Source: Candidatus Paracaedimonas acanthamoebae (GTDB taxonomy: Bacteria; Pseudomonadota; Alphaproteobacteria; Caedimonadales; Caedimonadaceae). Taken from it: a stretch of 32,000 nucleotides of DNA. The notes under the pieces are model-generated. The model was not told the origin of the DNA and made no database searches. It saw only the letters and a program-made list of their open reading frames with translations. This document shows, one piece after another, positions 23,802 to 26,686 of this stretch. Position 1 is the first letter of the stretch. Each line of letters begins with the position of its first letter. The position numbers and the translations under genes are program-made. The stretch is from contig CP008937.1 of NCBI GenBank assembly GCA_000743035.1, forward strand, positions 116,132 to 148,131, given 5' to 3'.

Positions 23802-26111
23802 GTGTTTACAAATAATTTGCTAGAGCCAGGCGTGTCTCATTTCATTATTAAGGATTATGCTTTAATTCAACCAAGTCCTCCACAATCTTCACTCCAAAGT
23901 AAGTTACCATCGCAATCTTTACCTTTACAGGAAATAGTGAGAAAGGAACTTCCTTCTCAGCCCGGTTTTATCTATAACTTTCCACCACAACCTCTTTATA
24001 ATCCTTGGCCTGGTGCTTCTCAAGCAGATGTCACCTTTGAAGTCGAAAAGCTTGAGGATAAGAGTCTTTATTTTATTGGACGTGAAAACAACAACATTAT
24101 CTTAGACCATACCAGTCTGCCAGACCAACTTCAGACTGTTCGCAAAGGTCCCTTCCAGTTAGAACGACACGATGATCTTATTTTTTGGTCTTACCTTGGG
24201 CTTGATCATACTAGAATGACTTTTGCCGTGAAAGAAAATGGCGATATCATATTTTTGCCTCTAAAAACAGAGACCGGGTACCAAGCGCATAAAGTTTGGA
24301 GCTTTAGAACGACAGGAACCATTATTAACCAAGCAGATTCTTGCTTTTATTTTTCTTACTTCCAGGCTTCACAAATTCATAATTTTCGTTTGCTGAAGTG
24401 TTTTGGCCTGGAGTCGCAGCAATCTTACTTTTTCAATAAGGGAGTCCTGCATTTAGGGGATGACACGGGGATAGCGTCTCTAAGCGTGTATCAAGAATAT
24501 TTGCCACTCATTGATGAAAAGGCTGAACCTCATTACCAAAAAGATGTGATTGATGATCATGGGGTTACACTTGCTGAGAAAGGTCTTAAGATTGGACACA
24601 TGACCCATCGTGTTCATCGCTTTACTGAGGCCCAAAAGCTAGAGCTTGATGAAGCGCCTCTTGAGGTTTATCAACAACTCAATGTTGAAGGCCCGATTAC
24701 CGGTACCACGCCTTCCATGATCAATCATGGCAGCATGAGTGCGCATGCGATGACATCAAGCCTGAGTGTTCAAGATTGGATCAACAAGGGTGAAGTTCGC
24801 CTGTCACTACCCTCTGGGATTCGAGCTCAAAATGAGATGGACAACAGCGGTGTTATCCGCAGTATAAGTAGCATCACACTGAGCTCCCGCAAGAAGCCTA
24901 AATCTTTGGGCATGGTGATTTCCGATGATCAAATTAAAGCGATGATCGACGATATTCTCACGCTTGAGGAGCAAGAGCTTGTCTTTGGAAATGCCCGCTT
25001 TTTGTCGAAAAAGCGCAGGCTTGTTGTTGATATGGTCCATCATACAGACCACTATTTAAACACGATCACCCATCATTATGTCCAAGATAGAGGGTTGCAA
25101 CGATTAATAAGGAAAACCGAGACAGGCTATGTCTTTCAGAAGCGGACTTCTGAAAGGTCTCAAAAAGTCATTGAAAAAGGCGTTATAGACATCCCTGAAG
25201 AAATCGAGGTCTTGGATCGAGCCTTTCATGATCGCCAGCGCCTTTTATCAAAATTGAGAGAAGGGATCAAAGATCGCATACGTGAGCTGATGCGTTTTTA
25301 TAGCGGCATTCAAGACCTCAGCCGAATGTTATCCTCTGTGCTTTCTGGCATGGGGCTGGATAGCGAGGAAGTGAGCGACATTACGAATGACCCTAGCCTC
25401 CAATCTCTTCTGTTAGCTTTGGGCTTGCCAGAGAAGGATGCGCTTGGACTTGTGGAGTCAGATGATTTTCAATTAAAACCTCTTTATCTCAGTATCCTCA
25501 CTGATGCCAAGAGGATAGGCCTTGCCGCTTACGAATGGATAAAAACAAATGGCTTAGAGTTTATTGAAAAATACTGCGCAGCAGCACAACTTGCAAGCAA
25601 ATCGAGTAAACCACAGGTAAAAATTGCAGGTACCATCGGATCAAGCATTTGCTTGACAGATAAAACAATGGGACGTTTTCCCAAGCTTGAAGCTCATATA
25701 AGAAAATTGCAGGAGGCAAAAGCAGGTCCGGTGGCTGCCTCAAGCAGTAGTACTAAGGAAGCACTACATGGATCTTCTCAAACGCCAAAAAATGTTGCTT
25801 TGCATGAAAAACAGAAGGTAGAGTTAAGAAGAGAAATGCAAGCTCCCCATGTCGAAGATACAGTTTTAAAAAGGACAATAGAAGATAATTATAAACCAAC
25901 AGCAAAAGTAGGAAGTGGAAGCACTGCAGATGCAGTTAGATATGAAATTAGAACTGGAAAACCTGTTGGTGATAGATTTCATACACAAAAAACTCAGCAG
26001 ACAATACGCAGGCTCGAAAAGTGGCTGAGAAAAAATCCAACTGCTCGTCCAGGAGATAGGGGCGCTGCAGAGAATATTTTAAGAGATGTTAAGGAAGCAT
26101 TAGGAAAATAG
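23802..26111 (+). CDS. C-terminal fragment of the same large protein; ends in a compact polymorphic-toxin-like C-terminal module
   Basis: 769-aa ORF (GTG at 23802). Its frame is open and homologous from about 23712 (ILASKYYQKPALVKDTLKLPFGTDDESIYLVFTNNLLEPGVSHFIIKDYALIQP). The last approximately 90 aa (..KVGSGSTADAVRYEIRTGKPVGDRFHTQKTQQTIRRLEKWLRKNP..GAAENILRDVKEALGK) form a discrete basic tip. A small gene follows 3 nt downstream. The pre-tip junction sequence is repeated at 26537-26683. Confidence 0.8.
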   Translation: MFTNNLLEPGVSHFIIKDYALIQPSPPQSSLQSKLPSQSLPLQEIVRKELPSQPGFIYNFPPQPLYNPWPGASQADVTFEVEKLEDKSLYFIGRENNNIILDHTSLPDQLQTVRKGPFQLERHDDLIFWSYLGLDHTRMTFAVKENGDIIFLPLKTETGYQAHKVWSFRTTGTIINQADSCFYFSYFQASQIHNFRLLKCFGLESQQSYFFNKGVLHLGDDTGIASLSVYQEYLPLIDEKAEPHYQKDVIDDHGVTLAEKGLKIGHMTHRVHRFTEAQKLELDEAPLEVYQQLNVEGPITGTTPSMINHGSMSAHAMTSSLSVQDWINKGEVRLSLPSGIRAQNEMDNSGVIRSISSITLSSRKKPKSLGMVISDDQIKAMIDDILTLEEQELVFGNARFLSKKRRLVVDMVHHTDHYLNTITHHYVQDRGLQRLIRKTETGYVFQKRTSERSQKVIEKGVIDIPEEIEVLDRAFHDRQRLLSKLREGIKDRIRELMRFYSGIQDLSRMLSSVLSGMGLDSEEVSDITNDPSLQSLLLALGLPEKDALGLVESDDFQLKPLYLSILTDAKRIGLAAYEWIKTNGLEFIEKYCAAAQLASKSSKPQVKIAGTIGSSICLTDKTMGRFPKLEAHIRKLQEAKAGPVAASSSSTKEALHGSSQTPKNVALHEKQKVELRREMQAPHVEDTVLKRTIEDNYKPTAKVGSGSTADAVRYEIRTGKPVGDRFHTQKTQQTIRRLEKWLRKNPTARPGDRGAAENILRDVKEALGK

Positions 26112-26114
26112 TAA

Positions 26115-26537
26115 ATGAAGTTTAATGAACACAATTGTACAAATTATATTCTAAGTTACCTTCCAAATTTTAAGCCTAAAGTATTAGATTATCATAATGA
26201 ACTTAAAGATAATCCTACAGAAAATCCAACCTTATGTGGTGATCTAACAGAACTAGTAGATTTCTATAAAGATTTAAAAGAATCCCCTAAGGTAAACCGT
26301 AAAGAAATAATAGAGATATTTAAAGTAATGGAAGAACTAGCGGCTCAAGGTGATAAGAATGTAAAAGGTGCTTTGGAAGTATGCTTCTTCGAAAGCATTA
26401 TTAATAGCTTGGGAACAGATGAAAAAGCATTAAAAGAGTTTTTTAAAATGTTAGGACCTGCATCACTTGAGCTTTGTAAACAAAATGATGCTTTCTGGGG
26501 GACAAGAACTCCAGGTTTGTATGAGAGTAATCACTAA
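26115..26537 (+). CDS. Small acidic protein immediately downstream of the toxin-like tip; candidate cognate immunity protein
   Basis: 140-aa ORF. The ATG lies 3 nt after the upstream stop, with AGGAAAA as RBS inside the upstream gene. It is predicted helical (..IIEIFKVMEELAAQGDKNVKGALEVCFFESIINSL..). The functional call rests on gene context only. Confidence 0.6.
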   Translation: MKFNEHNCTNYILSYLPNFKPKVLDYHNELKDNPTENPTLCGDLTELVDFYKDLKESPKVNRKEIIEIFKVMEELAAQGDKNVKGALEVCFFESIINSLGTDEKALKEFFKMLGPASLELCKQNDAFWGTRTPGLYESNH

Positions 26538-26686
26538 GTAACCTTACCACTGATCCTAGTCTTCAATCTCTCTTGTTAGCTTTGGGCTTGCCTGAAAAGG
26601 ATGCTCTTGGGTTGATTGATTCAGATGATTTTCAATACAAGCCTCTTTATCTCAATATTTTAACTGATGCCAAGAAATTAGGTTGA
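26537..26686 (+). pseudogene. Orphan stub: second copy of the pre-toxin junction of the 23802-26111 gene, ending in a stop
   Basis: 26537-26683 reads SNLTTDPSLQSLLLALGLPEKDALGLIDSDDFQYKPLYLNILTDAKKLG*. 25374-25520 reads SDITNDPSLQSLLLALGLPEKDALGLVESDDFQLKPLYLSILTDAKRIG, followed by the toxin tip. The stub starts exactly at the immunity gene stop codon. Confidence 0.8.

Follow-up and report, generated by a model that had tools for sequence, protein, structure and literature searches.

The interval 22978-26686 of the window (the whole 32,000-nt stretch of Candidatus Paracaedimonas acanthamoebae DNA that was analysed) is most probably a polymorphic toxin system, and we give this reading a probability of roughly 0.85. 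On the forward strand, this locus contains the ORFs of a carrier-toxin gene, a candidate immunity gene and an orphan stub. It would thus combine a beta-solenoid carrier with a Sec signal, a C-terminal toxin, a DUF7674 immunity protein and a stub left by cassette recombination. In polymorphic toxin loci, cassettes of a C-terminal toxin and its immunity gene are swapped by recombination at a pre-toxin junction, and orphan stubs are left downstream. This kind of system, with a swappable C-terminal toxin and an antidote gene, is well known; the carrier family described here appears to be undescribed. Judged by the features that reportedly define the class, the assignment is supported by a body that is shared among proteins with unrelated tips, by a downstream gene that covaries with the tip, and by orphan modules.

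The main ORF of the carrier-toxin gene (23802..26111) encodes 769 amino acids from its first GTG, and its frame is open from 23719. Database searches with this large protein revealed 13 homologs showing 19-32% identity (E values from 1.9e-101 to 4.3e-19), with related loci in Holosporales, Odyssella and other alphaproteobacterial MAGs. A metagenome scan added 5 further carrier loci, none of which were close relatives. Although their bodies are homologous, these proteins end in at least 5 tip types other than that of the window, and the expectation that related genomes would join the same body to different C-termini was thus borne out. The other tips include a colicin-E3 rRNase domain (PF09000; P0002, P0003, P0005-P0008, P0011 and L008), an EC869-like DNase (PF21111; P0009), a Colicin-DNase/WHH domain (L007) and two unnamed types (one in P0001 and an orphan of L007, the other in P0004, P0010 and P0012). 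In these relatives, the gene after the tip is of an immunity type that matches it: the E3 tip is followed by a DUF7683/Cloacin_immun-like or DUF6980 gene, the EC869-like tip by two copies of CdiI, and the WHH tip by a SUKH/SMI1_KNR4 gene. The orphan stubs expected of such loci were also observed, in the window and in three of the related loci. In L007, a 300-nt repeat of the pre-toxin region with 95% identity is followed by a different tip and a small gene. In L003, 16 codons of the same stretch are fused to a truncated E3-like piece, which is followed by a second immunity paralog, while in L020 the end of the tip is duplicated together with CdiI.

The putative toxin domain of the window occupies the last 104 amino acids of the large protein (25797..26108; pI 10.05). 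Its core runs from MQAPHVEDT to EALGK, and the motif GSGSTADAVRYEIRTGKPVGDRFHTQK lies at 25911-25991. An exhaustive HMMER search revealed that this domain belongs to a family of 2099 clusters at E<=1e-3 and 284 clusters at 1e-30, with the pattern GSGSTA..R.E..TG...H..K...W...D...AAEN..D, and the window tip matches the family profile and shows 44-62% identity to family members. The domain is located at the extreme C-terminus of its carriers and ends exactly at the end of the protein in 128 of 156 proteins. All of the family-invariant residues are retained in the window, including R713, E715, H727, K730, W741, D752 and D762 in the numbering of the 769-aa protein (M1, P4, G28, S29, R35, E37, H49, K52, W63, D74 and D84 were retained in domain numbering). 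The carriers of this family are Rhs-repeat and TcdB/SpvB (TcB-like) proteins and CdiA/TPS orphan arrays; it is also found beside VgrG (E. coli T6SS Rhs) and in about 400 E. coli genomes. The original prediction had likened the tip to C-terminal modules of Rhs-type toxins, and its family does indeed occur C-terminally on Rhs proteins; the proposed profile search of the last ~100 amino acids thus led to a large toxin family found only at C-termini, though one without a Pfam model. When the tip and 34 diverse family members were compared with Pfam and NCBIfam, no toxin family was hit, and the matches were sub-threshold noise, such as Rv0078B. Sequence-profile searches against PDB and a Foldseek search with the tip model, which has moderate confidence (pLDDT 69), gave nothing credible, and a literature search on E. 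coli Rhs-CT returned nothing that could be mapped to the domain. The basic pI and the invariant R, E, H, K, D and D residues would suit a nucleic-acid-targeting enzyme, which is our guess.

The gene directly downstream (26115..26537) encodes an acidic protein of 140 amino acids (pI 5.1) that was predicted to be immunity-like, and a search of Pfam assigned it to DUF7674 (PF24722) with 60.2 bits and an E value of 2.5e-16, against a cut-off of 27; its residues 10-129 align to positions 2-111 of the 111 in the model. The ORF begins 3 nt past the TAG of the toxin gene, with an AGGA 9 nt upstream of its start. We examined 11 unrelated contexts of window-type tips, ranging from Enterobacterales to Burkholderia-type CDI loci, cyanobacteria and Actinomycetota, and found a DUF7674-like gene directly 3' of the tip in 10 of them, the exception being L037. 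This association agrees with the predicted role, and the charges of the two products are complementary, the tip being basic (pI 10.05) and the small protein acidic (pI 5.1). No relative of the 140-aa protein was found among PDB sequences, and no papers were found in a literature search for DUF7674 or PF24722. In the proposed mechanism, the carrier would present the small basic domain, a widespread module that lacks a Pfam model, as a toxin, and the translationally coupled DUF7674 protein would be its cognate immunity protein, protecting the producer, probably by direct binding.

The conserved body of the carrier (residues ~70-370; 24009..24911) is confidently predicted to be a beta-rich, solenoid-like domain, as its AlphaFold2 model shows short regular strands with pLDDT values of 85-97. 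A Foldseek comparison of the carrier model with PDB returned nothing below an E value of 0.1, and the weak top matches (E >0.1) were beta-helix adhesin or lyase-like proteins. A long beta-hairpin follows (25020..25172), with strands at 407-429 and 432-457 in the model, and it carries the family signature DHYLNTIT...ETGYVFQ.R, whose invariant columns in the homolog alignment are D416-T423 and E440-R448. Next come a helical pre-toxin region and then a tail (LAAYEWIKTNGLEFIEKYCAAA...) with a disordered Ser-rich linker (25521..25796). The tail is kept in most homologs regardless of tip type (alignment columns ~697-860) and its residue W579 is nearly invariant, and residues 636-727 have pLDDT values below 50. 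Searches of 22978-26111 against Pfam and NCBIfam at E<=1 revealed no RHS/YD repeats and no RHS core (PF05593, PF03527), and Pfam searches of the carrier detected no Rhs, CdiA or MafB domains, no TPS domain, no filamentous-haemagglutinin repeats and no VENN pre-toxin motif. These results, together with the absence of a structural match, agree with the proposal of an uncharacterised carrier that is neither Rhs nor CdiA. On present sequence evidence, the carrier appears to represent a previously undescribed family that is so far confined to relatives of protist endosymbionts.

The 5' part of the carrier gene is a separate ORF of 246 amino acids (22978..23718), and a sigma-70-like promoter match, TTGACT-16-TATAGT, lies 34 nt upstream of it (22917..22944; 10 of 12 positions in a consensus scan, a pattern match only). 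As judged by eye, this ORF starts with a putative Sec-type signal peptide, MGKKILSWVVIISQVYASCAQA, and the carrier homologs begin with similar Sec-like signal peptides. After the signal peptide comes a tandem repeat domain of ~127 amino acids in one and a half copies, encoded by direct repeats at 23158-23492 and 23539-23872 with a spacing of 381 nt and then 380 nt. The ORF has no match in Pfam or NCBIfam and was not found in the loci of relatives. Three-frame translations revealed why it ends at 23716..23718: where repeat 1 has AAATTTCTAGG, repeat 2 has AAATTT-TAGCC, in which a 1-nt deletion creates the TAG. With one additional C at this site, the gene would read as a single ORF of 1043 amino acids that includes the signal peptide. 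On the 3' side of 23716, the gene continues in the -1 frame (ASKYYQKPALVKD...LVFTNNLLEPGV), which is open to 26111, and the frameshift thus splits the signal peptide from the toxin-bearing ORF. Programmed frameshifting at AAA-TTT-TAG was considered and rejected, because a -1 shift is needed but the phase of the heptamer does not suit tandem slippage; we therefore treat the indel as something that could be either a real mutation or a sequencing error.

Since the toxin-bearing ORF is cut off from the signal peptide by the frameshift, the system in this genome may be inactive. If the deletion is real, the locus could be a decaying relic in which the toxin ORF has lost its export or proper expression and the immunity gene alone, if anything, is useful, for instance against the toxins of relatives. 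The truncated stub, which indicates earlier deletions at the locus, would agree with such decay, and similar inactivation is common elsewhere, as in an E. coli Rhs allele with a nonsense codon just 5' of a window-type tip. However, the 769-aa frame is otherwise intact, its tip has lost none of the family-invariant residues, the immunity gene is intact and tightly coupled, and a single-base indel beside a T run could be an assembly error. Decay is thus a possibility that we take seriously but consider unlikely.

The surroundings of the locus gave no indication of an export partner. No secretion partner was found near the carrier gene among the window ORFs, no ShlB/POTRA gene was present among the ORFs of at least 120 amino acids that were scanned, and no conserved accessory or secretion gene adjoins the carrier genes across the loci of relatives. 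In megablast, a 14.5-kb part of the window had no match among plasmids, and when plasmids were searched with the carrier by tblastn, the tip alone was matched. The window also holds many eukaryote-like STAND, TIR, TPR and patatin genes.

The target cell is probably a rival bacterium. An alternative is that the eukaryotic host of an endosymbiont is the target of the system or becomes addicted to it, with the immunity protein serving as the antidote in a host-level addiction module. A role of this kind has been proposed for novel polymorphic toxin systems of a Holosporales endosymbiont (Midha et al., PMC8163844), and it would accord with a carrier family that is confined to Holosporales, Odyssella and similar MAGs and with the eukaryote-like genes in the window. 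However, the other tips of this carrier (colicin-E3, EC869-like and WHH), which come with bacterial immunity genes, and the other carriers of this tip (CdiA and T6SS Rhs) are classic antibacterial weapons, and a producer needs an immunity gene only if the toxin hits bacterial targets. We therefore regard a host-directed function as improbable.

Evidence for past recombination comes from a pair of direct repeats. Copy 1 (25374..25520; ...SDITNDPSLQSLLLALGLPEKDALGLVESDDFQLKPLYLSILTDAKRIG) encodes residues 525-573 in the helical pre-toxin region, and the orphan stub (26537..26686) consists of 49 in-frame codons homologous to copy 1 and a TGA, with no start codon. A repeat search aligned 25378-25519 with 26541-26682 (142 nt, 81% identity), and in the frame of the large ORF, 25374-25520 and 26537-26683 differ at 30 of 147 nt, with 9 amino acid changes in 49 codons. 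The similarity was highly significant in blastn (136 bits, E value of 2.4e-35), the best of 100 shuffles reaching 31 bits, and in tblastn the stub matched copy 1 with 79% identity over 52 amino acids (E value of 6e-15). The original prediction had described these repeats accurately. Their best 132 nt (25389-25520) contain 25 mismatches, where about 24 had been claimed, and exactly 6 amino acid changes in 44 codons, and the peptide that it quoted is the same as the one found. The second copy does start at the stop of the small gene, its first base being the last base of the TAA (26535-26537), and its homology to copy 1 stops at a TGA (26684-26686). Between the copies lie 196 codons and the stop of the large ORF, which had been counted as the last 197 codons, followed by the acidic 140-aa ORF.

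The two copies have no indels or internal stop between them, and we estimated a dS of ~0.9 (0.90), a dN of 0.12 and a dN/dS ratio of 0.13. A ratio this low at such a dS indicates that the stub diverged while it was still coding and is not a fresh duplication, in accordance with the earlier claim that the second copy derives from a once-functional homolog. That the stub is a recent local tandem duplication of 25374-25520 which then drifted, and so is uninformative on cassette exchange, is very improbable: the copies are direct, in the same orientation and just 1163 nt apart, but most of their divergence occurred under purifying selection on coding sequence, which a 49-codon fragment without a start could not undergo, and the third-position composition of the stub differs, with 19 of the 30 differences having G/C in copy 1 and A/T in the stub. 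The stub (147 nt) would instead be what is left of the pre-toxin region of another homolog, one that diverged long ago. We suggest that recombination at this conserved stretch exchanged or added a C-terminal cassette consisting of the tail, the tip and the immunity gene, and that the remainder of the orphan has been deleted.

The position of the repeat and the base composition bear on where the exchange may have taken place. The copies bracket the toxin tip and the immunity-like gene, as was proposed, but the repeat does not lie at the pre-toxin boundary, because ~92 codons of family-conserved tail, which is missing from the stub, and linker separate its end from the toxin domain. In two independent loci, namely the window and L003, the similarity breaks off no more than two codons from ...A(K/Q)R(I/L)G. 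The GC content is 0.43 in the body (GC3 0.41), 0.39 in the tip (GC3 0.19) and 0.32 in the small gene (GC3 0.21); GC3 is 0.45 in repeat copy 1, which is body-like, 0.31 in the stub, and 0.295 in 25521-25835, which takes in the tail, the linker and the first 13 codons of the toxin domain. Inside the carrier-toxin gene, GC3 falls significantly from 0.40 to 0.19 (p ~0.0005), which fits a mosaic origin. Since the change-point interval (25442-25859) spans both the repeat end and the toxin start, exchange at the repeat and exchange in the linker are not distinguishable. The tip and the small gene are more AT-rich than the body, as had been noted by eye, but relative to the window the compositional outlier is the body, and the tip and the immunity gene match the local background.

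Comparison with known systems places the locus near several of them. The MafB proteins of Neisseria are reported to join a conserved N-terminal body with a Sec signal to C-terminal toxins that vary, and to be encoded next to a MafI immunity gene and orphan cassettes. The carrier is similarly a medium-sized protein with a putative Sec signal, a variable C-terminus, an adjacent immunity gene and orphans sharing the pre-toxin region, and neither system is known to have a dedicated secretion partner encoded nearby. However, there is no sequence relationship between them: the carrier body has no DUF1020 or other Pfam match, it is predicted to fold as a beta-solenoid, with a long hairpin and a helical region after it, and its taxon is Holosporales-like. 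Rhs/YD-repeat toxins, including the E. coli T6SS VgrG-linked Rhs proteins, have this very toxin domain at their C-terminus, with a DUF7674-like gene after it, and show the same logic of C-terminal displacement and orphans, whereas the carrier lacks RHS repeats, an RHS core, and any PAAR or VgrG association. With CdiA/CdiI, the likeness lies in the tip and its DUF7674 gene, which form orphan modules downstream of CdiA (PT-VENN in L014; TPS/Fil_haemagg in L031), in the use of a CdiA-type EC869-like toxin with CdiI by one carrier homolog, and in a conserved segment that separates the toxin from the putative exchange point, but the window has no TPS domain, FHA repeats, VENN motif or CdiB/ShlB partner. 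Colicins are not known to carry signal peptides; they have helical translocation and receptor domains, are plasmid-borne and come with lysis genes. Most carrier homologs end in a colicin-E3 cytotoxic domain, and at least one has a cloacin-immunity-like gene, but neither helical translocation/receptor domains nor a plasmid or lysis genes were seen at the carrier locus. The Holosporales also include the endosymbiont 'Ca. Bodocaedibacter vickermanii', for which novel polymorphic toxin systems I-III were described (Midha et al. 2021, PMC8163844). The large toxins of these systems have N-terminal parts without known homology, adjacent antitoxins and orphan modules sharing a repeat with the main gene, and they thus provide a precedent for novel-carrier polymorphic toxins with orphan modules in such a bacterium; compared by description, their tips (AHH, Tox-HNH-HHH and metallopeptidase-5) are unlike those found here.

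A more specific and quite doubtful version of the preferred reading, a polymorphic toxin system, is that the carrier is an undescribed, Holosporales-restricted, Sec-dependent beta-solenoid toxin family with a 1163-bp exchange unit (tail, tip and immunity gene) and a fixed breakpoint after ...A(K/Q)R(I/L)G. The direct copies might then act as arms for cassette excision and integration, the system might serve symbiont-host addiction, and DUF7674 might be the immunity family of a widespread unnamed toxin domain.

Should the locus be a polymorphic toxin system, the known carriers of such toxins gain a new scaffold, from a group of intracellular bacteria that has received little study, and the locus bears on the question of why endosymbionts keep such weapons. 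In addition, the nameless toxin domain, which is shared by Rhs, CdiA and Tc-like proteins, could be defined as a family, and DUF7674 may be proposed as its cognate immunity family.

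The toxin-like locus at 22978-26686 of the window is, with a probability of roughly 85%, a true polymorphic toxin locus with its immunity gene and an orphan stub, whose carrier belongs to an as yet undescribed family. This reading, which agrees with the original prediction, is supported by the variable tips, matched immunity genes and orphans found in relatives. A profile scan of the carrier, the 769-aa ORF at 23802-26111, revealed no Pfam or NCBIfam domain, and 13 homologs were recovered (E 1.9e-101 to 4.3e-19) with identities of 19-32% across the full alignment and 25-35% in the best local alignments; no relative above 36% identity existed in the collections searched. 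Genome and metagenome scans placed the family in Holosporales, Holosporaceae, 'Ca. Odyssella' and unclassified alphaproteobacterial MAGs. The homologs are approximately 700 aa long, begin with a Sec-like signal peptide and share an invariant signature, DHYLNTIT...ETGYVFQ.R. In an AlphaFold2 model built from a 14-sequence alignment, residues ~70-370 form a beta-rich, solenoid-like domain (pLDDT 85-97), with the signature on a long beta-hairpin; residues 466-640, including the repeat discussed below, are helical with lower confidence, and a disordered Ser-rich linker joins them to the tip. Foldseek found no PDB match to this model below E 0.1. Thus, by the tests run, the carrier is neither Rhs nor CdiA, as had been expected of an uncharacterised carrier, nor is it MafB.

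The carrier homologs diverge completely at the C terminus, so that the same body bears other tips in relatives, a pattern that the original prediction had proposed looking for. Most homologs end in a colicin-E3 cytotoxic domain (PF09000), followed by a DUF7683/Cloacin_immun-like gene (locus L018) or a DUF6980 gene (loci L003 and L026). The homolog P0009 carries an EC869-like CDI toxin tip (PF21111) with two CdiI genes downstream; locus L007 has a Colicin-DNase/WHH tip and a SUKH/SMI1_KNR4 gene; P0001 has an unnamed tip and a 93-aa gene; and P0004, P0010 and P0012 share a third unnamed tip. In L007, 300 nt of the pre-toxin region is repeated with 95% identity, and downstream of it lie a different tip (53% identical to that of P0001) and another small gene. 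In L003, a second immunity paralog is preceded by 16 codons of the window-repeat stretch (SFFKDTTTQAQRLGLS) joined to an incomplete E3-like fragment, while in L020 the tip end and CdiI are duplicated. Tip variation, paired immunity genes and orphans together define a polymorphic toxin system at the genomic level. We also observed that DUF7683 (weak Cloacin_immun similarity; L018 10223-10672) and DUF6980 (L003 1421-1720 and 1954-2259; L026 3976-4677) behave as immunity families for the colicin-E3-type carrier tips; the DUF6980 genes occur as tandem paralogs with a CPWCG motif and a conserved C terminus, EF(Q/E)(S/T)DEWWKKRGL.

The tip in the window comprises the last ~104 aa (25797-26108; pI 10.05). 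Sequence and profile searches found no Pfam, NCBIfam or PDB match, and its mostly helical AlphaFold model (pLDDT 69) had no Foldseek match. An exhaustive HMMER search nevertheless identified a large family of 2099 cluster representatives at E<=1e-3, 284 of them reaching 1e-30, and in 128 of the 156 best hits carrying the domain its end was the last residue of the protein. The domain occurs on Rhs-repeat proteins, in line with the Rhs-type appearance first noted, and on TcdB/SpvB-type proteins, although the family has no name. It is also found in orphan modules behind CdiA (L014 with PT-VENN, L031 with TPS/Fil_haemagg), in a cyanobacterial VgrG/CIS locus, on plasmids of Serratia, Kitasatospora and Methylosinus, and in T6SS-linked VgrG-Rhs of E. 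coli, where ~400 complete genomes have the segment at no less than 80% coverage. Eleven columns (M1, P4, L11, G28, S29, R35, E37, K52, W63, D74 and D84) do not vary across a diverse alignment of 34 sequences and H49 is 99% conserved among 156 sequences; the window tip retains all 12 residues. Given its basic charge and conserved R/E/H/K/D/D set, our best guess is that the tip would be a nucleic-acid-directed enzyme. The first residue of the domain, Met679 (25836-25838), is Met in 99% of the 156 representatives and is followed by x-K/x-P, a conservation unusual so near a linker; possible explanations are a processing site, an internal start or a purely structural role. In the T6SS-linked Rhs gene of many E. 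coli genomes, a Q codon has become a stop four codons (11 nt) ahead of the corresponding Met (L022 5995-6003 vs. L025 6296-6304), which is why annotation lists the tip as a separate 92-aa 'type IV secretion protein Rhs'; other strains keep an open frame through to the tip.

The small gene directly downstream (26115-26537; 140 aa, pI 5.1), for which a profile search had likewise been suggested, gave a full-model match to Pfam DUF7674 at 60 bits. A DUF7674-like gene directly follows the tip in 10 of 11 contexts, namely the window, Lelliottia, another enterobacterial CdiA orphan array (L014), E. coli (L022), a Burkholderia-type CDI locus (L031), a cyanobacterium, an Rhs orphan array (L034), Serratia, Kitasatospora and Methylosinus; only in Methylorubrum was none found after the tip. 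Some of these matches fall below the Pfam threshold but show clear mutual homology. Because the pairing is kept across unrelated carriers and phyla, there is strong genomic evidence that the tip and DUF7674 form a putative cognate toxin-immunity pair. A literature search found no paper on DUF7674.

A repeat search of the window confirmed the direct repeats first noted, 142 nt long with 81% identity (25378-25519 vs. 26541-26682); blastn scored the pair at 136 bits (E 2.4e-35), compared with at most 31 bits across 100 shuffles. Read in the large ORF's frame, 49 codons are homologous (25374-25520 vs. 26537-26683), and they differ at 30 nucleotides and 9 amino acids. Over the 132-nt core, where about 24 mismatches and 6 amino acid changes had been estimated, we counted 25 mismatches and exactly 6 changes in 44 codons. 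The second copy is a stub whose first base is also the final base of the small gene's TAA; it lacks a start codon and, as first described, runs immediately into a TGA, where the homology stops. Nei-Gojobori counting gave a dN of 0.12, a dS of 0.90 and a dN/dS of 0.13, and therefore both copies had long diverged while coding. These values confirm what had been proposed, namely that the stub is a piece of another functional homolog and not a fresh local duplication. Shortly before the stub, within the final 45 nt of the immunity gene, a hairpin with a T-rich tail (26494-26515) resembles a terminator, and promoter-like matches (26702-26730, + strand) precede a LysR-family gene (26835-27764).

The repeat had been taken for the pre-toxin junction. 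It does lie upstream of the tip, but not at the toxin boundary, since ~92 codons, made up of a tail (LAAYEWIKTNGLEFIEKYC...) and the linker, intervene, and this tail is conserved in most carrier homologs regardless of the tip. P0009-type proteins diverge directly after the repeat position, and the homology between main gene and orphan ends at the same alignment position (within 2 codons) in L003 (...AQRLGLS; 912-959 vs. 1755-1802) and in the window (...AKRIG; 25520/26683). From these two observations, the repeat end may be a genuine exchange point, and its recurrence in two unrelated loci hints that recombination favours a breakpoint ahead of the conserved tail. The window has a mean GC content of 35.7% and a gene GC3 of 0.19-0.34; the outliers are the carrier body (0.41) and copy 1 (0.45), whereas the tail (0.30), tip (0.19), immunity gene (0.21) and stub (0.31) do not stand out from the background. 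The tip and small gene are thus AT-richer than the body, as suspected, but it is the body that is unusual. A single composition change-point was significant (p ~0.0005), with a support interval (25442-25859) spanning the repeat end and the toxin start alike. The toxin gene is a mosaic.

The true start of the large gene is at 22978, in a 246-aa ORF that encodes a putative signal peptide and tandem copies of a ~127-aa domain without a Pfam match, the second of which continues into the 769-aa ORF. The copies are spaced 381 and then 380 nt apart with 74-79% nucleotide identity, and this N-terminal extension (22978-23872) is missing from all homologs. A 1-nt deletion at ~23716 (AAATTT-TAG vs. AAATTTCTAGG) creates the TAG that splits the gene into the two ORFs. 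Should this be an artefact of assembly, the protein would have ~1043 aa; if it is real, the toxin-bearing product is without its export signal, and the system may be a relic. We consider it rather unlikely that the system is inactive in this genome because of the frameshift.

The surroundings of the polymorphic toxin locus include ParA, SSB, an HTH_26 regulator, two adjacent DnaA_N-domain ORFs and a DUF3310 protein (18449-20201 and 28883-31868), together with a block of NB-ARC, TPR, TIR, SEFIR, patatin and trypsin-like genes. ParA, SSB, DnaA_N, DUF3310 and this block suggest a plasmid or other mobile region, phage included, of an endosymbiont-like genome. No nucleotide match to the 14.5 kb of the window that was searched was found among PLSDB plasmids, and neither secretion machinery nor a conserved neighbour was found next to carrier genes. 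The block is a STAND-type cluster (85-3492 on the + strand; 5889-8300, 8306-9169, 9182-11194, 11350-12864 and 12945-17408 on the - strand) of large genes with NB-ARC and DUF7779, TPR arrays, TIR and weak SEFIR, plus a patatin-like phospholipase and a trypsin-like protease. Eukaryote-like or defence-like proteins of this kind are typical of amoeba and protist endosymbionts.

The locus does not represent a novel type of system but a variant of one that is well known. Its closest precedent, likened by description, is the Holosporales endosymbiont reported to encode three polymorphic toxin systems whose N-terminal regions are novel and which include orphan modules, with a proposed role in host addiction (Midha et al., PMC8163844). 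Most useful among the by-products of our analysis are that a widespread toxin domain without a name is now defined and that DUF7674 is proposed as the immunity family for that domain.
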